Below, piece after piece: positions 1,521 to 22,503 of a stretch of DNA of 22,503 bases. The position numbers and the translations under genes were made by a program. The first letter of the stretch is position 1, and every line of letters begins with the position of its first letter. The notes under the pieces are model-generated. The model had not been told where the DNA came from. It did no database searches and saw only the letters and a program-made list of their open reading frames with translations. Source of the stretch: a virus (lineage: Duplodnaviria > Heunggongvirae > Uroviricota > Caudoviricetes); the IMG/VR virus record IMGVR_UViG_2698536485_000016, positions 1 through 22,503 of that record; one strand, 5' to 3'.

Positions 1521-1980
1521 TCAACGTAAGGCGTTCCTCGATATGCTGGCGTGGTCAGAGGGAACTGATAACGGACGGCAGAAAACCAGAAATCATGGTT
1601 ATGACGTCATTGTTGGCGGAGAGCTATTCACTGATTACTCAGATCACCCTCGCAAACTTGTCACGCTAAACCAAAAACTCAAATCAACAGCCGCCGGACG
1701 TTACCAGCTTCTTTCCCGTTGGTGGGATGCCTACCGTAAGCAGCTTGGCCTGAAAGACTTCTCTCCGAAAAGCCAGGACGCTGTGGCATTGCAGCAGATT
1801 AAAGAGCGTGGCGCTTTACCGATGATTGATCGCGGTGATATTCGTCAGGCTATCGACCGTTGCAGCAATATCTGGGCTTCACTGCCTGGCGCTGGTTATG
1901 GTCAGTTCGAGCATAAGGCTGACAGCCTGATTGCAAAATTCAAAGAAGCTGGCGGAACGGTCAGAGAGATTGAGGTATGA
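1504..1980 (+). CDS. R: Endolysin, lambda R type (lytic transglycosylase)
   Basis: 158-aa ORF directly after the holin, overlapping its 3' end by 17 nt; translation matches my recollection of lambda R ([24 protein letters not shown]...). Confidence 0.95.
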
Positions 1981-2444
1981 GCAGAGTAACCGCGATTATC
2001 TCCGCTCTGGTTATCTGCATCATCGTTTGCCTGTCGTGGGCGGTCAATCATTACCGTGATAACGCCATGACCTACAAAGAACAGCGCGATAAAAAAGTCA
2101 GTGAGCTGATGCAGGCTACTACCACCATTACTGACATGCAGCAGCGCCAGCGTACTGCTGATGCACTTGATGCTAAATACACGAAGGAGTTAGCTGATGC
2201 GAAAGCTGAAAATGATGCTCTTCGGCGCAAGCTTGATAATGGTGGTCGGGTGCTCGTCAAAGGAAAATGCCCTGTGCCATCCTCAGCCGAAACCTCCAGC
2301 GCCTCCGGCATGGGCAATGATGCCACCGTCGAACTCTCTCCAGTTGCTGGACGAAACGTTCTCGGTGTCCGGGACGGAATTATCCGCGACCAAACAGTAC
2401 TGAGAACGCTTCAGGAATACATCAGGACGCAATGCCTTCGATGA
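1977..2444 (+). CDS. Rz: Rz inner-membrane spanin (i-spanin)
   Basis: Start overlaps the R stop (ATGA); N-terminal transmembrane segment followed by a coiled-coil-like periplasmic domain; position after the endolysin. Confidence 0.9.
2197..2403 (+). CDS. Rz1: Rz1 outer-membrane lipoprotein spanin (o-spanin), nested in the +1 frame of Rz
   Basis: 68-aa ORF wholly inside Rz; signal peptide with lipobox (LIMVVGC) followed by a proline-rich mature region ([11 protein letters not shown]); classical embedded Rz/Rz1 architecture. Confidence 0.75.
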
Positions 2445-2785: not shown

Positions 2786-3304
2786 ATGAATCATCAATTG
2801 GCTAATCTCGATTTCCGGGACATGGTGGTTGTTTCTGGTGATCGCGTGATCACAACCTCCCGCAAGGTAGCAGCTTACTTCGACAAGCAGCATCACCACA
2901 TCATTCAGAAAATCGAAAAGCTAGACTGTTCGGATGAATTTCTAACCAGCAACTTTTCGCGGGTTACCTATGAACACAAGGGTAATCAGTATGTTGAATA
3001 TGAAATTTCCAAAGACGGCGCGATGTACATCATCATGTCGTTTACCGGCAAAAAAGCTGCCGCCATCAAAGAGGCGTTTATCAAAGCATTTAATTGGATG
3101 CGTGACAGGCTGATGGAGATGGCTCACTCATACCAAAGAGAGCACAACGAGTTAATGCTGGAGTTCATGAAGGAAAAGGATGTTGCCAGTATGTCAGGAC
3201 GCTTGCTGAACCGCTGGGGCAGGATCAAAAAACCGCAACTCATAGCAAGAATCGAAAGGCTTGAGCAGCAGGCGCAAATATCGATCCCCGGACTGCCAAA
3301 GTGA
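2786..3304 (+). CDS. Rha-family phage regulatory protein
   Basis: N-terminal segment VVVSGDRVITTSRKVAAYFDKQHHHIIQKIEKL and later MSFTGKKAAAIKEAFIKAFNWM fit the Rha domain pattern as I know it. ATG at 2786 preferred over the GTG at 2750 used by the ORF track. Confidence 0.75.
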   Translation: MNHQLANLDFRDMVVVSGDRVITTSRKVAAYFDKQHHHIIQKIEKLDCSDEFLTSNFSRVTYEHKGNQYVEYEISKDGAMYIIMSFTGKKAAAIKEAFIKAFNWMRDRLMEMAHSYQREHNELMLEFMKEKDVASMSGRLLNRWGRIKKPQLIARIERLEQQAQISIPGLPK

Positions 3305-17477: not shown

Positions 17478-17738
17478 TTATCTGCTGTCTTTTTTATATA
17501 GCTTCTTGAGCGTATCAAAGACAATTTTCTTAACCATATCAGATTGTTGTTCTGCCATACGCTCTGCATCGTCAATGTAAACTGATGCAGAGCTTTGTTT
17601 ATCCAATGATTCCTCAATCGCTGCAATTATCTCTGAGTTCAGCGACCTGTTATTCATCTTCGCACGCTGCTTAATTTTCGCGTGGAGTTCATGCGGAAGT
17701 CTCAAGTGAAACTGCGCCTCGTCGTATTTGCTGTACAT
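17478..17738 (-). CDS. mnt: Mnt-like repressor (ribbon-helix-helix, Arc/MetJ superfamily)
   Basis: Translation (FHLRLPHELHAKIKQRAKMNNRSLNSEII...DAERMAEQQSDMVKKIVFDTLKKLYKK) aligns along its length with P22 Mnt as I remember it. ATG at 17738 chosen (SD GGTGAGG upstream); an upstream ATG at 17771 is possible. Confidence 0.8.
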   Translation of the reverse strand: MYSKYDEAQFHLRLPHELHAKIKQRAKMNNRSLNSEIIAAIEESLDKQSSASVYIDDAERMAEQQSDMVKKIVFDTLKKLYKKDSR

Positions 17739-17869
17739 CCTTGATGCCTCACCAGTTGGGTGGAATGGCATCGTAACCTACTGGATAAATACTCAATAAT
17801 ACCATTTTGGTATGCAATCACATCATGGTTGCATCATATCATTCGTCTGGAGCAATGAAATGTCAGATA

Positions 17870-18370
17870 TCACCTACTCAACAGATGGTCAGCAACCATG
17901 TTTGCTGCCTTATAAGCTATAGCAGCTTCATCAATGGTGTTGAATCTCCCAAGGGTTATGTTTTTACCTGAGACATTTATCTGAGCTTGCCATTGATTTC
18001 TGGCTTGACAGAAAGTTACCCCCTTGATCCCAGCATTGCTATTTCGAGGTCCGACATTTAATGCATTTACGACTCTGCTGACATCCCTAAGGTTTGAGAT
18101 TGCGTTATTTCTTCTGTTTCTATCAATGTGGTCAATCTCTTGTTTGGGCCATTCGCCATATACATACAGCCAGGCAAGTCTATGTGCAAAATATCTTACG
18201 CCATCAATATTAATTGCGTTATATCCATAAGAAATTGTGCCAGCAACTTTCCCAACAGCACCTCTGGCGCTTAATTTCTTTTTCCAAGTGAAAATTCCTG
18301 TTTCTTTATTGTAATCGAGAACCTCCATAAGGCGCTCCCGAGTTACTACCTCGTGACGTCTCTTACTCAT
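17870..18370 (-). CDS. HNH endonuclease with C-terminal AP2-type DNA-binding domain (homing-endonuclease-like)
   Basis: HNH_3-like motif ([38 protein letters not shown]) followed by an AP2-like segment (GIKGVTF...WQAQI...[22 protein letters not shown]). ATG at 18370 with strong SD (GGAG, 6-nt spacer) chosen over the TTG start at 18412 in the ORF track. Confidence 0.85.
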
Positions 18371-18392
18371 TATTTTCTCCGGAATGTTTATT

Positions 18393-20060
18393 ATGCCAGA
18401 ACAATTATACAACGTTGTTGTTTCACAACCAAGTCAGTTATTTACTTTAGCTCGCTCGTTTAAAGCAAATGCCAATGGCAAAATTTATATCGGAAAAATT
18501 GACACTGATCCGGTAAATCCTGAAAACCAGATCCAGGTTTATGTGGAGAATGAAGACGGCTCTCACGTTCCTGTTTCGCAACCAATCATCATTAACGCTG
18601 CTGGTTACCCTGTATATAACGGACAGATTGCCAAGTTTGTAACCGTGCAAGGCCATTCTATGGCTGTTTATGATGCGTACGGCGCGCAGCAGTTTTATTT
18701 TCCGAATGTACTGAAGTACGACCCGGATCAGCTTGAGCAGCGTCTTGCATCATCAATAGGTTCTTCCATGGTTGGCATTACCGATGGAAGGACAGTGCAT
18801 GATTTTATATCTGTTGATGACTATCAGAGAATTGGTGATATCCGTGGTTACGGGGCGACAAATGAAAACGTAAACCCTGTCAACATTGCCGTTGCCACAG
18901 GTGAGGCCAATGGTCTACTGAAGGTGCCTAATGGAGTATGGAGCGGTAATTTTGAGTTAAAAAATAAAACTAGCATAACTGGTGAATCCATAACATCAAC
19001 AGTTGTTAACGTTCCTATAAACACGATCGGAATAAAGCCTGAGGGCTCTGACGTTAGAGGGATTACTATATCAAACATGAATCTCCAAGTTAACGGATCT
19101 GTTGCTGGCGGTCCTCCTGTTGGTAGCGGGGTCGGAATAGACATGTCTTTTTGCGGAAAGGCAGTTAACTGTGAGTTTAACAACCTTTATCTCGATTTCT
19201 TTGATATTGGTTACAACGCTGGATATGCTGATTTTTCAAATATTTATAACAATATGAGGTGCAATAACAACCGAATCGGGATTAACCTATCCAGTAACGG
19301 AACAATTATTCAAAACGTGTTCAATGGGTGTTATGTTGCAAACTGGACGGCTTATGCCGTGAAAGTTTCTGGCGCTAGCAACCAGATATTCAACGCGCTT
19401 AACATGGGGCATAACGGATCCGCCAATGCTTATTTCCTGCAGATAGATACGAACTCAAGAGGAATCATATTTAATCAACCTAACTTCGAAATGGACGTTG
19501 CAAACGGGAAAATTACAGCAGGAGGCCAGGCTATCGTGGTCGCCTCTAGTTCTGAGGTTACATTTAACTCCCCGACATTCAACAGGGTTAACGCTGCAGG
19601 GGCAAATGCCTACCTGTTCCGGGTTAGGGGTAACGCTGTAGTACGTATAAACGACCCTCAAATCTACAACGACGATGGCACAATAGGTCACCTAATTATC
19701 AGTGATGAAGCTGTTGTTTATCTCAATGATCCAAATCGAATATTCACAGTAATTACTATCCAAGGTAATGGGAGGCTAATACGTGTTGACGAGAAGATAT
19801 CAAACTCCCCTAACTATACAAACATTCTTACTTTAAAATCTGGAGACATAATTAACTTTGGATTCTATGCAAGATATGCAATGGCGGTTCCAGATTTTCA
19901 CTCCAATACTATGCCATCACCATTCAAGTACGCAGTGAACTTTGACACTTACCATAGCAGTGGAACTGCCATTGCTCGAGTGTATGATACAACTACAGGA
20001 AATGGAGTATCAAACATCAATGTTACATGTTTCGTACAGGCGTGGAGAGAGGATAGATAA
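18393..20060 (+). CDS. Tailspike protein: conserved P22-type head-binding N-domain plus divergent parallel beta-helix receptor-binding domain
   Basis: N-terminal ~115 aa ([53 protein letters not shown]...) match the P22/Sf6 tailspike particle-binding domain; the remainder is Asn/Gly/Val/Ile-rich repeats typical of a beta-helix. Start could be 18384 or 18393. Confidence 0.85.
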
Positions 20061-20090
20061 AAATAGGGCGGTCTCCCCGCCCTATTTTTA
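20061..20090. terminator. Bidirectional intrinsic terminator between the convergent tailspike and acyltransferase genes
   Basis: Perfect 9-bp stem atagggcgg / ccgccctat with a 5-nt loop, flanked by AAAA on the left and TTTTT on the right. Confidence 0.7.
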
Positions 20091-21155
20091 TACTGTAACT
20101 AAATTGTCTTCATTTCTATTGGTTTTTCTTTTTAATTTAAGAAAATGTATTTCAAAAAGATAGTATGACGCAGTTGATACTATATATGCGATAGCAAACC
20201 CACATGCTATTATCACAGCATTATTGTTTACTCCAAACAAGGAGGCCATTTTGTTTGCAATTGAAAAACACAGCAAATGCCACATATACAAACCATAACT
20301 TATCTTTCCTGTAAATGTTAATGGCTTTAATGATAATGCTTTTGTTATTATTTGTTTTTTCCCTAGCACACTCCACTTGTAAATGAAAAAAATTGCAGAT
20401 GAAAAAATCATCCCAAACGCTGTAAACATATACCAGCATTTCCCAGCCCAATCTACAGGGTTCCAAAAAGCATTAAGACCAACAGAATTTATTCCATTAA
20501 GAACCAGCCCAACACCTGCTATAAAAGTTAAAAATCCTGATTCATATGCGTACTTCTCATCTTTTATCTTTGAAAACAGAGCGCCAAGAACTAACATGTC
20601 AATGCAACTGATAAGAGTTACATTTACAATGTATGGGTTTCCATCAGTGATTTGAAATATAAAATATCTTGATATACTTGATGTTATTATTAGTATAATA
20701 AAAATCAGATTCATATTCTTTTTGTTTATGAAAAATATGAATAGAGGCCAAAGCCAGTAAAATTGTTCTTCCACTGCAAGAGACCAGGTGTGCCCCAAAA
20801 TTCCAGGTGTTGTAACATTTATTCCTATATAATAGTTTTGTAGATAAGTTATAAACCACAAATAACCATCCGTTGGTTTCCCAGTTGCAATTAGAAGAAT
20901 AAAGTTAACAAGTAGGTAAGCATAAAATAACGGGAATATTCTAAGCGATCTATTTATAAGAAATCGTTTAATATAGTTACTAAAACCAGAGTCTTTATCC
21001 TCGATAAGGATTGAGGTAATTAAGAAACCAGATAAGCAAAAGAACAGCGGAACTCCAGACCAACCAAGAGAAAATCCTGAAACTTTGGCATGAAAAAGCA
21101 TTACAATGAGCACCGCAATACCTCTCACACCATCTAAAGATTGTATATGTTTCAT
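20088..21155 (-). CDS. Integral-membrane acyltransferase family 3 protein (O-antigen acetylase-like, probable lysogenic conversion gene)
   Basis: 355-aa polytopic membrane protein; N-terminal motif LDGVRGIAVLIVMLFH and multiple hydrophobic segments typical of the family; AT-rich; located between tailspike and integrase as in serotype-converting phages. Confidence 0.85.
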   Translation of the reverse strand: MKHIQSLDGVRGIAVLIVMLFHAKVSGFSLGWSGVPLFFCLSGFLITSILIEDKDSGFSNYIKRFLINRSLRIFPLFYAYLLVNFILLIATGKPTDGYLWFITYLQNYYIGINVTTPGILGHTWSLAVEEQFYWLWPLFIFFINKKNMNLIFIILIITSSISRYFIFQITDGNPYIVNVTLISCIDMLVLGALFSKIKDEKYAYESGFLTFIAGVGLVLNGINSVGLNAFWNPVDWAGKCWYMFTAFGMIFSSAIFFIYKWSVLGKKQIITKALSLKPLTFTGKISYGLYMWHLLCFSIANKMASLFGVNNNAVIIACGFAIAYIVSTASYYLFEIHFLKLKRKTNRNEDNLVTV

Positions 21156-21345: not shown

Positions 21346-22503
21346 TTACTCCACCTTTTCATCAAGCCAGTCCGCCCACCACTGCATCATTTCTCTGCGT
21401 TTATCGAGATACTGAGCATGGTTGTAAATTCCGCGCACAGATCCGCCGTTGGCATGTGCAAGTTGCACTTCAATAGCGTCAGCAGGCCATTCGTGCTCGT
21501 TCATAATCGTGCTGAATTCATGCCTGAATCCGTGACCGCTTTCCAGACCCTCATAGCCGATTTGTTTAATCACAAGCAATACCGCGTTCTCGCAGATTGG
21601 CTTCTTCTTATCGTTGCGCCCGGCAAAAACAAACTCTGATACTGGTTTAGTGATGGAGCTTAGCGTAGTGAGAAGTTCAACCACCTGGTCTGACATAGGA
21701 ACAACATGAATCTTGCGTCCCTTCATCACATTGGCGTCGATGGTGATAATCCTGTTTTCAAAATCGACGTTCTTCCATAGCATGGAACGAAGCTCTTTTG
21801 TTCTGAGGGCTGTGTAGCGTAAAACTTTGGTCGCAATGAGCGATACGATACTTCCTGAAAATGTTGCCAGTGCTTTGTTAAATGCCGGGATCTGGTCTGC
21901 AGGAAGAAACGGGAAGTTCTTCTTGCGGTATCCTTTCATGGCGTCTGCAAGGTCAGGTGCCGGGTTATATTTAGCCCTTCCGGTGACAATAGCGTAACGG
22001 AAAACCTCGCCGCATCTTCTGCGGGCTTTGTTGGCTCGCTCCATTGCACCGCGATCTTCAAATCTGCGGATTACTTCCAGCAGTTGCATCGGCTCAATAT
22101 CCTGAATTTCAAGGCCGCCGATGATAGGTAAAATGTCGTCATCAAACATTTTTGCAAGTTCATTTGCATAGCCTACTGACCAGACTTGCTTCTTGTGCTC
22201 GTACCATTCCTTGTAAATCGCACTAAAGGAATTGTTGTTAGACGAAGCCTTTTTCGCTTTTACCGGATCGATGCCAACCGAGATGTCTTTCCTCGCAGTC
22301 CATGCTTTATCCCTTGCCTCCTGCAAAGTCATAAGCGGGTATTTTCCGACGGTCAGGATTTTCTCCTTACCGTCAATCTTGTAGCGAAGCTGCCATACCT
22401 TTTTCCCGGATACAGGGACATAAAGGTACAGGCCATTACCATCGAGTAGGCGGTATGGTTTTTCTTTCGGCTTAGCTGCTTCAATCTGCTTAACGGTGAG
22501 CAT
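21346..22503 (-). CDS. int: Tyrosine integrase, P4-like (N-terminal DUF4102-type arm-binding domain)
   Basis: N-terminus MLTVKQIEAAKPKEKPYRLLDGNGLYLYV typical of the family; C-terminal catalytic motifs HGFRHEF and RGIYNHAQY. The start codon occupies 22501-22503, so the upstream region is outside the window. Confidence 0.9.
   Translation of the reverse strand: MLTVKQIEAAKPKEKPYRLLDGNGLYLYVPVSGKKVWQLRYKIDGKEKILTVGKYPLMTLQEARDKAWTARKDISVGIDPVKAKKASSNNNSFSAIYKEWYEHKKQVWSVGYANELAKMFDDDILPIIGGLEIQDIEPMQLLEVIRRFEDRGAMERANKARRRCGEVFRYAIVTGRAKYNPAPDLADAMKGYRKKNFPFLPADQIPAFNKALATFSGSIVSLIATKVLRYTALRTKELRSMLWKNVDFENRIITIDANVMKGRKIHVVPMSDQVVELLTTLSSITKPVSEFVFAGRNDKKKPICENAVLLVIKQIGYEGLESGHGFRHEFSTIMNEHEWPADAIEVQLAHANGGSVRGIYNHAQYLDKRREMMQWWADWLDEKVE

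Follow-up and report, generated by a model that had tools for sequence, protein, structure and literature searches.

The window, meaning the whole analyzed stretch of DNA of 22,503 nt, carries downstream of Q a lysis cassette of the order S-R-Rz/Rz1, in which the S holin gene (1197-1520, PF05106) and a lambda-type R gene (1504-1980) lie directly 5' of Rz, the last gene of the cassette. The stop codon of R is overlapped by the start of Rz (ATGA), and a small downstream ORF that starts at 2432 overlaps the 3' end of Rz. The coordinates 1977-2444, which had been assigned to Rz by an earlier, sequence-only reading, were exact. They delimit an ORF whose product matched PF03245 ('Bacteriophage Rz lysis protein') with 99.2 bits (cut-off 25.4) over profile positions 1-125 of 126, and PHROG 13 with 243.8 bits over the full length. 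Rz1 is wholly embedded in Rz in the +1 frame (Rz nt 221-427), and its product matched PF06085 ('Lipoprotein Rz1 precursor') with 75 bits (cut-off 27.9) and, in the PHROG search, PHROG 3198. Its start at 0.47 L and its end at 0.91 L fall within the embedded-spanin range of Kongari et al. 2018. Scans of the whole window for tRNA genes and Rfam families gave no matches. The genes and segments are listed below, with the evidence for each in parentheses.

1977-2444, forward strand: Rz, the i-spanin (inner-membrane subunit), 155 aa (ORF, Pfam, PHROG, and nucleotide identity to Ayreon and HK620).
2186-2189, forward strand: GGAG Shine-Dalgarno sequence of Rz1, 7 nt before the ATG at 2197 (read from the sequence).
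2197-2403, forward strand: Rz1, the o-spanin (outer-membrane lipoprotein), 68 aa (ORF, PF06085, PHROG 3198, and likeness to HK620).
1977-2045, forward strand: module A, covering Rz residues 1-23 (N-terminus plus transmembrane domain), of the lambda/HK620/Sf6 type (alignments; within the AF2 helix 3-87).
2046-2093, forward strand: conserved island NHYRDNAxTYKxQRDK, equivalent to the Sf6 'bsq7 boundary sequence' and the main mosaic junction zone (Sf6 annotation, identity, and junction peaks).
2094-2165, forward strand: variable patch inside coiled-coil 1, an Ayreon-like variant with several private substitutions (alignments).
2166-2224, forward strand: conserved island common to lambda, with the Shine-Dalgarno sequence, start codon, and first 9 codons of Rz1 (few mismatches to lambda; junction peak 2217-2246).
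2225-2411, forward strand: HK620-type cassette encoding Rz residues 84-145 (a Cys98-containing linker and the greater part of the C-terminal region) and Rz1 residues 10-68 (alignments; Table 4 of Kongari 2018).
2293-2313, forward strand: PPAPPAW motif of Rz1 (read as SASGMGN in Rz), an island of conservation within the cassette (hybrids L428 and L447; minor junction peak 2307-2321).
2412-2444, forward strand: 3' end of Rz including Cys153, the right-hand cassette junction (common to Sf6/P22-type and some 933W-type genes).

The GGAG of Rz1 thus lies inside the conserved block 2166-2224. The identity of the two genes was based on the Pfam and PHROG scores, the lipobox, the embedding in the +1 frame, the cysteines aligned with those of lambda, the AF2 helices, and the S holin and R genes upstream. 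Residues 4-23 of Rz, which follow M-S-R, are hydrophobic, 100% identical to the single N-terminal transmembrane domain (NTMD) of lambda Rz, and helical in the AF2 model at a pLDDT of 84-95. The single-sequence AF2 model contains one long helix (residues 3-87, pLDDT 78-95), in agreement with the lambda TMD plus the CC1 boundary (27-87) of Cahill 2017, and a C-terminal helix (139-154) at a pLDDT of about 60-66, with residues 88-138 modeled at low confidence. Rz C98 and C153 align with lambda Rz C99 and C152 and are candidate intermolecular-disulfide cysteines. The signal peptide of Rz1 ends in the lipobox VVG/C19, with Ser (S20) rather than Asp at +2. Position 27 is a further Cys, PKPPAPPAW forms a proline-rich stretch, and C19 and C27 line up with lambda Rz1 C20 and C29. 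Rz1 is accordingly small, with a signal peptide and lipobox Cys, and is a predicted lipoprotein sorted to the outer membrane.

The mode of action of the pair can be transferred from lambda. By that analogy, Rz would be anchored in the inner membrane via its N-terminal transmembrane helix, Rz1 would be attached as a lipoprotein to the periplasmic side of the outer membrane, and the C-terminal regions of the two proteins would join to span the periplasm. After the action of holin and endolysin, the complex would disrupt the outer membrane, probably via its fusion with the inner membrane. The lysis cassette that carries the pair belongs to an E. coli phage or prophage of the P22-like (Sf6/HK620-like) kind.

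Identity to lambda (NC_001416) was determined in 50-nt bins. S, R, and the start of Rz were 92-100% identical per bin (S and R, 97-100%). Rz was 86% identical from 1977 to 2224, and after 2224 the identity fell to 44-60% per bin, or about 50% overall, which supports the earlier view that the front of Rz is lambda-like and the back different. The change is abrupt, with 2 mismatches in the 50 nt of 2175-2224 versus 24 in the 50 nt of 2225-2274 (Fisher p = 4e-7). It places the junction at 2223-2225, corresponding to Rz codon 83 and Rz1 codon 10. At the protein level, as counted from the alignment, 69 of Rz residues 1-83 were identical to lambda (83%) versus about 24 of the 72 residues from 84 to 155 (about 33%). 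A breakpoint had been expected inside Rz at 2090-2230, just upstream of Rz1. The interval was correct, both for the lambda junction and for a second junction at about 2094 relative to Sf6/CUS-3-type phages, but the lambda junction falls within Rz1, 28 nt past its start, and not before the gene.

Rz1 of the window is 47% identical to that of lambda and 8 residues longer. It had been described as differing from lambda over its entire length, which does not hold for the ribosome-binding site, the ATG, the first 9 codons (MRKLKMMLF in the window, MLKLKMMLC in lambda), the PPxPPAW motif, or the two cysteines, all of which are conserved; the architecture, Pfam families, and PHROGs are likewise common to both phages. 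The C-terminus of Rz reads EYIRTQCLR versus KYINEQCR in lambda, so that lambda E150 is not conserved, the Rz1 tail differs from the ...SPSERG of lambda, and, unlike in lambda, bor does not follow Rz. When mature Rz1 and the C-terminal half of Rz were compared with the lambda Rz1 allele class (lambda, 933W, 21, and DE3; …HIKAVCQSVREATTASGVDN… / …CTSKQSVSQCVKPPPPPAWIMQPPPDWQTPLNGIISPSERG), the window was found not to be a member. Kongari 2018 also placed the Rz1 of phage 21 in the lambda family.

The closest alleles were found in phages of the HK620 type. HK620 Rz/Rz1 (NC_002730, HK620p37) has the same lengths (155 aa and 68 aa) and the same embedding as the pair of the window. The lambda-type S and R on its upstream side and the small ORF that follows it are also shared. 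Identity to HK620 was 96-100% across 2166-2444 at the nucleotide level, and 65 of the 68 Rz1 residues were identical in HK620 and likewise in ST104. In the cassette at 2225-2411, HK620, Ayreon, and ST104 matched the window at 96-100% identity, as against about 35-60% for lambda, 933W, Sf6, and P22. Kongari et al. 2018 assigned the Rz proteins of HK620 and ST104 to the lambda i-spanin family and their Rz1 proteins to a separate 'HK620' o-spanin family (Table 4). By amino acid identity, Rz1 of the window grouped with that family (HK620, ST104, and Gifsy-1) and not with the Rz1 of lambda or of HK97/P22. The same allele was present in Ayreon, phiv205-1, APC_JM3.2, ST104/PS119 gene 15, and many E. 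coli prophages.

Over the whole of Rz, nucleotide identity was 97.2% to Ayreon (0.93-1.00 per segment) and about 96% to HK620, and at most 97.2-97.7% to any match found. Full-length copies of the Rz arrangement were detected in 1,774 of 5,426 complete E. coli genomes (one third), and at least 80 IMG/VR loci matched Rz over its full length at 88-96% amino acid identity, as judged from the best 80 listed. Such whole-Rz protein scans of related loci, each yielding the best 80 full-length matches, are biased against recombinants and serve as context only.

These data bear on the recombinant reading made from the sequence alone, which taken literally would mean that, in the line leading to this phage, a lambda-like Rz recently gained both Rz1 and a C-terminal half of foreign origin. 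The lysis region is indeed a patchwork: the window matches lambda and Sf6 at 96-100% identity through S and R, the cassette and the DNA downstream match HK620, and upstream of S (1101-1200) the window is 100% identical to lambda and Sf6 and only 64-78% identical to HK620. Nevertheless, HK620, phiv205-1, and APC_JM3.2 share this S-R-Rz/Rz1 layout with the window at 96-97% identity along the full 1,504 nt, Rz is nearly uniform in its identity to Ayreon, a full-length copy occurs in one third of the complete E. coli genomes, and the junction at 2223-2225 is common to all HK620-type genes examined. A recent origin specific to this phage is largely refuted and extremely improbable; identity to single known alleles is essentially uniform across the gene, the outcome that had been named in advance as refuting a recombinant pair. 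Alignment and binned identity against lambda and the P22/Sf6 types, a comparison of the kind that had been proposed, confirmed the junction but not a recombination peculiar to the window. Because identity to single alleles is nearly uniform and the arrangement is so widespread, the recombination event is old, widely inherited, and no part of the recent history of the window. The arrangement is a long-known and very common HK620-type allele and not a new recombinant.

The private changes of the window (for example, Rz M31, M45, and T49, and Rz1 Y68) are, within Rz, concentrated in 2046-2165, where a small recent exchange could have taken place. HK620 has 10 mismatches to the window in the 26-nt patch 2096-2121, where the window is nearer to Ayreon. 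The lambda-like half of Rz is itself patchy, with a separate variable patch at 2094-2165 that is most marked at 2096-2126. Sf6/P22-type genes carry a 21-nt deletion within this patch. The island at 2046-2093 had a mean pairwise identity of 0.86-0.99, and 933W-type phages carry a version of module A (1977-2045) unrelated to that of the window.

The Rz/Rz1 pairs of Sf6, P22 gene 15, CUS-3, and Sf101 belong to the 'HK97' o-spanin family of Kongari 2018. Sf6 was 96-100% identical to the window in 1101-2093 (S, R, and Rz codons 1-39) and in 2412-2600 (the last 11 Rz codons and the small downstream ORF), but the identity dropped to 34-60% over 2201-2400, the bulk of the cassette. In the Sf6 type, the 318-nt stretch 2094-2411 is replaced, with the 21-nt deletion, a different end of coiled-coil 1, and a different linker and C-terminal region, and Rz1 is a different protein of 61 aa with a shifted start. 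From 2401 onward, Sf6 and the window were again 84-98% identical, with the last mismatch at 2417. The reverse pattern was obtained with ST104, which was 96-100% identical in 2217-2366 and 46-76% identical in 2082-2171, and whose holin and endolysin genes are non-homologous to those of the window.

These patterns are relevant to the alternative that no recombination took place and that the Rz segment overlapping Rz1, being tolerant of change, simply diverged faster. Kongari 2018 sorted o-spanins into 7 families and i-spanins into one, a distribution interpreted as reflecting a more permissive segment. In addition, all Rz1 classes are homologous (one Pfam family, PHROG 3198, and conserved PPAW motif and cysteines), so that the classes must have arisen by divergence at some point. 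Faster divergence does not explain, however, a step from about 96% to about 50% identity within a few bases, identical cassettes in Rz genes and lysis cassettes that differ elsewhere (ST104 and Ayreon), different cassettes between flanks that are 96-100% identical (Sf6 versus the window), or the natural hybrids described below. Taken alone it is very improbable; the Rz1 classes were made by divergence and distributed by recombination. Recombination rather than gradual divergence was favored because of the sharp junctions, the Sf6 flanks, the ST104 mosaic, the reassortment of the cassette, the clustering of junctions at islands, and the boundary annotation in Sf6. The identity profiles also indicate apparently incongruent histories for the 5' part of Rz and the cassette.

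The distribution of junctions was determined with a MaxChi-like scan of about 100 unique Rz genes. This less biased sample was drawn with a nucleotide pattern taken from the bsq7 island and comprised at least 120 stretches; its class frequencies are approximate. Junction peaks coincided with conserved islands, namely 2037-2051 and 2067-2096 (together 2037-2096, at Sf6 bsq7, the strongest zone) and 2217-2246 (the start and signal peptide of Rz1), with a minor peak at 2307-2321; the pair counts of the histogram are not independent, since a single ancestral crossover contributes to many of them. The scan is blind to junctions within 40 nt of the ends of the gene, and the right-hand junction at about 2412, at the end of Rz, was obtained from pairwise comparison with Sf6 and from downstream typing. 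A further peak at 2367-2381 represents lambda/933W-like genes (e.g., L388 and L356) that have swapped roughly their last 20 Rz codons, and junctions were almost absent in 2262-2276 and 2337-2366. The cassette class combines with all main endolysin types and several downstream contexts; the gene identities, the junction positions, the population distribution, and this free reassortment with flanking genes are matters of direct observation.

The bsq7 feature is annotated inside Rz in the Sf6 GenBank record, where it corresponds to 2046-2093. No boundary annotation was found in the phage records examined for the island 2166-2224 or for that from 2412; these may be described in the work on HK620 (reportedly Clark et al. 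2001, which is said to treat the 'boundary sequences' of lambdoid phages) or in the Sf6 genome paper (reportedly Casjens et al. 2004).

In the proposed origin, codons 1-83 of Rz would derive from a lambda-like sequence pool, and the sequence from codon 84, including Rz1 from codon 10 to its end, from an HK620/PS119/ST104-type cassette. Homologous recombination between diverged lambdoid spanin alleles would have produced this layout, with crossovers at short conserved islands, namely the bsq7 block (2046-2093), the block with the ribosome-binding site and start of Rz1 (2166-2224), and the 3' end of Rz from 2412. These islands may be crossover sites because they are conserved. Overall, we consider it highly probable (approximately 0.88) that 1977-2444 encodes an ordinary two-component spanin with the embedded lambda Rz/Rz1 architecture, in an HK620-type allele of old mosaic origin.

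As had been proposed, the C-terminal part of Rz moves as one cassette with most of Rz1. The stronger statement that the pair must be exchanged as a unit was not sustained. Two contigs carry natural hybrids (L428 and L447) that are of the 933W type to about 2312 and of the HK620 type from about 2313, with the crossover at the right end of the PPAW motif of Rz1, and the last 11 residues of Rz (ending YIRTQCL[RK]) occur with three different Rz1 classes. What stays together is only the overlapping C-terminal portion of Rz and Rz1, which is encoded by shared DNA.

Whether selection for co-adapted C-termini, rather than mere overlap, keeps the cassette intact, with internal crossovers being non-functional and purged, was considered next to the reason given earlier, that co-evolving partners account for the exchange. 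Such selection would fit the near absence of junctions in 2262-2276 and 2337-2366 and the retention of cognate C-terminal halves of both proteins in L428 and L447. It would also fit the pairing seen among the lambda/933W-like matches listed, in which the Rz end NEQC always occurred with the Rz1 end SERG (47 unique sequences) and RTQC with SE[NS]G (about 42), with no crossed combination, the counts being of unique sequences and not of independent events. The salt bridge between lambda Rz E150 and Rz1 R59 (Cahill 2017) agrees with the NEQC/SERG pairing. On the other hand, the interacting parts are encoded on the same or adjacent DNA (at most 45 nt apart), so that such a pattern is expected from linkage by itself. 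Divergence between the cassettes leaves the PPAW island as the only place for homologous crossover, and it is exactly there that one was seen. The occurrence of YIRTQCL[RK] with three Rz1 classes indicates that the extreme C-terminus is not class-specific. Co-adaptation as the cause is a possibility with the odds somewhat against it. No selective argument is needed for the co-inheritance of the C-termini, because they lie on the same or adjacent nucleotides and the cassettes (about 35-60% nucleotide identity) are too diverged for internal crossovers.

Several of the islands carry a double load: 2166-2224 combines Rz coding sequence with the ribosome-binding site, start, and signal peptide of Rz1, 2293-2313 the Rz linker with the PPAW fusion motif of Rz1, and 2412-2444 the end of Rz with the start of the downstream ORF. 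A speculative and rather doubtful extension would be that these islands are conserved for the double load and act as built-in crossover sites that shuffle spanin sub-modules. The L428/L447 hybrids and the NEQC/RTQC pairing would then map specificity to Rz residues of about 113-155 and to the part of Rz1 after PPAW, and free interchange would be possible for the lipobox-Cys-proline part of Rz1. The population data chart natural crossovers in two overlapping genes with products that have to interact, and the natural hybrids could guide chimera experiments on spanin specificity.

For annotation, the correct label of the pair is HK620-type and not lambda-type, and Rz1 (2197-2403) deserves to be annotated, as it is absent from several related records, including those of HK620 and Ayreon. 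Beyond correct annotation the pair is of little consequence, and the understanding of spanins and of lambdoid mosaicism is unchanged. The remaining late region of the window is also most like that of Sf6.

The spanin pair of the window was found to be a common, previously classified and already known allele that arose long ago as a mosaic of the kind typical of lambdoid phages. The window itself comes from a P22-like (Lederbergvirus) E. coli phage or prophage and represents its late region, with the gene order Q, lysis cassette, Sf6-type terminase, head and injection genes, tailspike, O-antigen acyltransferase, and integrase, and no single phage record matched more than 70% of it (top matches: vB_EcoP-683R2, Sf6, HF4s, and HK620). 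The sequence-only reading had placed Rz at 1977-2444 with Rz1 embedded in it, and these calls were confirmed by Pfam and PHROG matches for Rz and by a Pfam match for Rz1.

Lysis genes of the window.
1197-1520: S; PF05106
1504-1980: R, lambda-type
1977-2444 (+): Rz (i-spanin), 155 aa; PF03245 (99 bits) and PHROG 13, full length
2197-2403 (+): Rz1 (o-spanin), 68 aa, in the +1 frame inside Rz; PF06085 (75 bits)

All sequence-level family features open to checking are present in the pair. The N-terminal segment of Rz is hydrophobic, and its Cys 98 and Cys 153 align with C99 and C152 of lambda. A single-sequence AlphaFold model of Rz contained a confident helix (3-87) and another helix at 139-154, separated by a stretch of low confidence; the first helix stops where coiled-coil 1 of lambda ends, at residue 87 (Cahill et al. 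2017). Rz1 is preceded by a ribosome-binding site (GGAG, 7 nt ahead of the ATG), and its signal peptide ends in a VVG|C19 lipobox; Ser occupies position +2, a second Cys lies at position 27, and a PKPPAPPAW stretch is present. By analogy with lambda, Rz would reside in the inner membrane and Rz1 in the outer membrane, attached there by its lipid, and the two would bind through their C-terminal regions so that the complex bridges the periplasm; holin and endolysin would clear the cell wall first, after which the spanin complex would disrupt the outer membrane, probably by fusing both membranes. Nothing contrary to such a mechanism appears in the window sequence. The HK620 (NC_002730) and Ayreon (MF807953) records lack an Rz1 annotation, though the 68-aa ORF is intact, and routine annotation would probably overlook the Rz1 of the window as well.

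From 1101 across S and R into the beginning of Rz, each 50-nt bin of the window is 92-100% identical to lambda. Within Rz, identity was 86% over 1977-2224, then 44-60% per bin to the gene end, and lower still downstream, which bears out the earlier description of a lambda-like front and a different back. Mismatches rose from 2 in 2175-2224 to 24 in 2225-2274 (Fisher p = 4e-7), placing the junction with lambda at 2223-2225, in Rz codon 83; at the protein level, 69/83 residues are shared in Rz 1-83 and about 24/72 in Rz 84-155. The breakpoint, proposed to lie just upstream of Rz1, is instead located 28 nt inside it, in the signal peptide, because the Rz1 ribosome-binding site, ATG, and first nine codons belong to the lambda-shared block. 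The PPxPPAW motif and both cysteines are also common to lambda Rz1, to which identity is 47% overall, and Rz1 does not differ in its entirety. Rz1 is a diverged homologue of lambda Rz1 and not an unrelated protein, and one Pfam family and one PHROG (3198) hold all Rz1 classes.

The observation was accurate in its main points, and the interpretation as a recombinant was too strong: identity to one known allele, the result that the sequence-only reading had named as its refutation, is essentially uniform, for example to that of Ayreon (97.2% over all 468 nt of Rz, with per-segment identities of 0.93-1.00). The entire 1,504-nt S-R-Rz/Rz1 block was matched by HK620, phiv205-1, and APC_JM3.2 at 96-97%, and 65/68 Rz1 residues are identical in HK620. 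Of 5,426 complete E. coli genomes, 1,774 contain a full-length copy of Rz, and at least 80 IMG/VR contigs among the matches listed carry it at 88-96% protein identity. In a sample neutral to C-terminal class, obtained by searching for a DNA pattern taken from the conserved 2046-2079 block, the HK620-type cassette (2225-2411, encoding Rz residues 84-145 and Rz1 residues 10-68) accounted for about a quarter of genes among the matches listed. One 83-member i-spanin family holds the Rz of HK620, ST104, Sf6, P22, 933W, and lambda, with embedded o-spanins mainly of three families, namely HK97 (with P22, Sf6), lambda (with 933W, 21), and HK620 (with ST104, Gifsy-1) (Kongari et al. 2018).

The pattern has been read as the embedded segment diverging faster (Kongari et al. 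2018). Divergence must have made the classes, since they remain homologous; their distribution, judged from the sequences compared, is mosaic. Between Sf6 and the window, identity is 96-100% on the two flanks (1101-2093 and 2412-2600) and only 34-60% across most of the intervening 318 nt, which include a 21-nt indel. ST104 is 96-100% identical in 2217-2366 but 46-76% in 2082-2171, and its holin and endolysin genes are unrelated to those of the window; Ayreon has the same Rz beside a different holin and lysin. In the sampled loci, the HK620, Sf6/P22, and lambda cassette classes were each found beside lambda-R, Ayreon/RrrD, ST104, and 933W endolysin types and with several downstream sequences, and a 933W-type transmembrane segment is joined to a lambda-type cassette in three loci (L330, L392, and L443).

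Junctions were located by scanning every pair of 102 unique Rz genes from the class-neutral sample (among the matches listed) for points at which identity steps from 92.5% or more to 75% or less across adjoining 40-nt windows. Pair counts are non-independent, so the histogram gives the places of junctions and not crossover frequency.

Junction positions in the pairwise scan of Rz genes.
2037-2051: 480 pairs; left edge of the 2046-2093 block
2067-2096: 2,228 pairs; right edge of the 2046-2093 block
2217-2246: 760 pairs; right edge of the Rz1-start block
2307-2321: 85 pairs; Rz1 PPAW motif
2367-2381: 210 pairs; Rz1 end
2262-2276 and 2337-2366: 6 pairs together; cassette interior

The edges of the 2046-2093 block were reported as the two largest junction peaks, and this block is annotated as 'bsq7; boundary sequence' in the Sf6 GenBank record, a concept that goes back to Clark et al. 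2001. The junction zones are also the most conserved parts of the Rz gene. The junction at about 2412 lies too near the gene end for the pair scan and is evident from the Sf6 comparison instead.

Exchange of the pair as a unit holds for the C-terminal third of Rz and post-PPAW Rz1, which are inseparable because the same nucleotides are read for both, but not for the whole cassette. A hybrid cassette occurs in two IMG/VR contigs, L428 and L447, that differ in their Rz 5' parts: it is 933W-type (87-100%) as far as about 2312, and HK620/ST104-type (93-100%) sequence begins at about 2313, with the crossover in the PPAW codons of Rz1. The N-terminal portion of mature Rz1, with its lipobox, Cys, and prolines, is therefore separable from the C-terminal parts, as is the linker of Rz. 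HK620-type, Sf6-type, and some 933W-type Rz1 all occur with an Rz whose final 11 residues end …EYIRTQCL[RK], and the last ~20 Rz codons are exchanged among lambda/933W-like genes too (L388, L356, and L330). Among lambda/933W-like unique sequences in the matches listed, Rz …NEQC always accompanied Rz1 …SERG (47 sequences), Rz …RTQC accompanied Rz1 …SE[NS]G (about 42), and no crossed pairings were seen. This strict pairing fits co-adaptation and the salt bridge between Rz E150 and Rz1 R59 (Cahill et al. 2017); linkage by itself could also give it, the paired end sites being only ~45 nt apart.

Nine 933W-type Rz genes among L248-L327 (among the matches listed) are a longer variant (495 nt, 164 aa) ending …AFYYPEDT rather than …QC(L)R, hence without the C-terminal Cys motif; the partner Rz1 ends …IISSSENG. 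The Rz genes of the IMG/VR loci L436 and L347 are apparently damaged, reflecting either decaying prophages or sequencing errors: a frameshift carries the L436 Rz into the frame of Rz1 (…SGVDN ATAPDWQTPLNGIISSSENG, then stop), and the L347 Rz is cut off after …GIRDG.

A 50-aa ORF (2432-2584, +) with a hydrophobic N-terminus begins at an ATG within the final Rz codons. It matched PHROG 11822 (unknown function) at 130 bits over its full length, no Pfam match was found for it, and its counterparts are Sf6 gene 65 and an Ayreon hypothetical protein. Of 27 sampled loci with this block downstream of Rz (among the matches listed), 26 have the ORF intact, and since it follows HK620-type and Sf6-type spanin cassettes alike, its product could be a small membrane protein, the fifth in the lysis region.

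Directly 5' of S, the segment 1101-1200 agrees fully (100%) with lambda and Sf6 and only to 64-78% with HK620, to which identity is 98-100% from 1201 onward; on these identities, the change at about 1201 is read as a further mosaic junction, at the holin gene start. The slot after the lysis genes holds a Rha-family regulator (2786-3304, +; PF09669 and ORF11CD3 domain PF10549; PHROG 518); at this place a KilA-N protein is encoded in HK620 and ST104, and rha lies there in P22. A 180-aa ORF (17870-18412, -), which has an HNH_3 endonuclease domain as well as a weak AP2 domain and may be a homing endonuclease, overlaps the tailspike start at 18384 and adjoins a Mnt/Arc-like repressor (17478-17771, -), in a region corresponding to the place of the immI/ant genes in P22. 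An Acyl_transf_3 protein (20088-21155, -), a probable O-antigen acetyltransferase like Sf6 oac, adjoins a tyrosine integrase (21346-22503, -) that runs past the window end, and this pair suggests a serotype-converting prophage.
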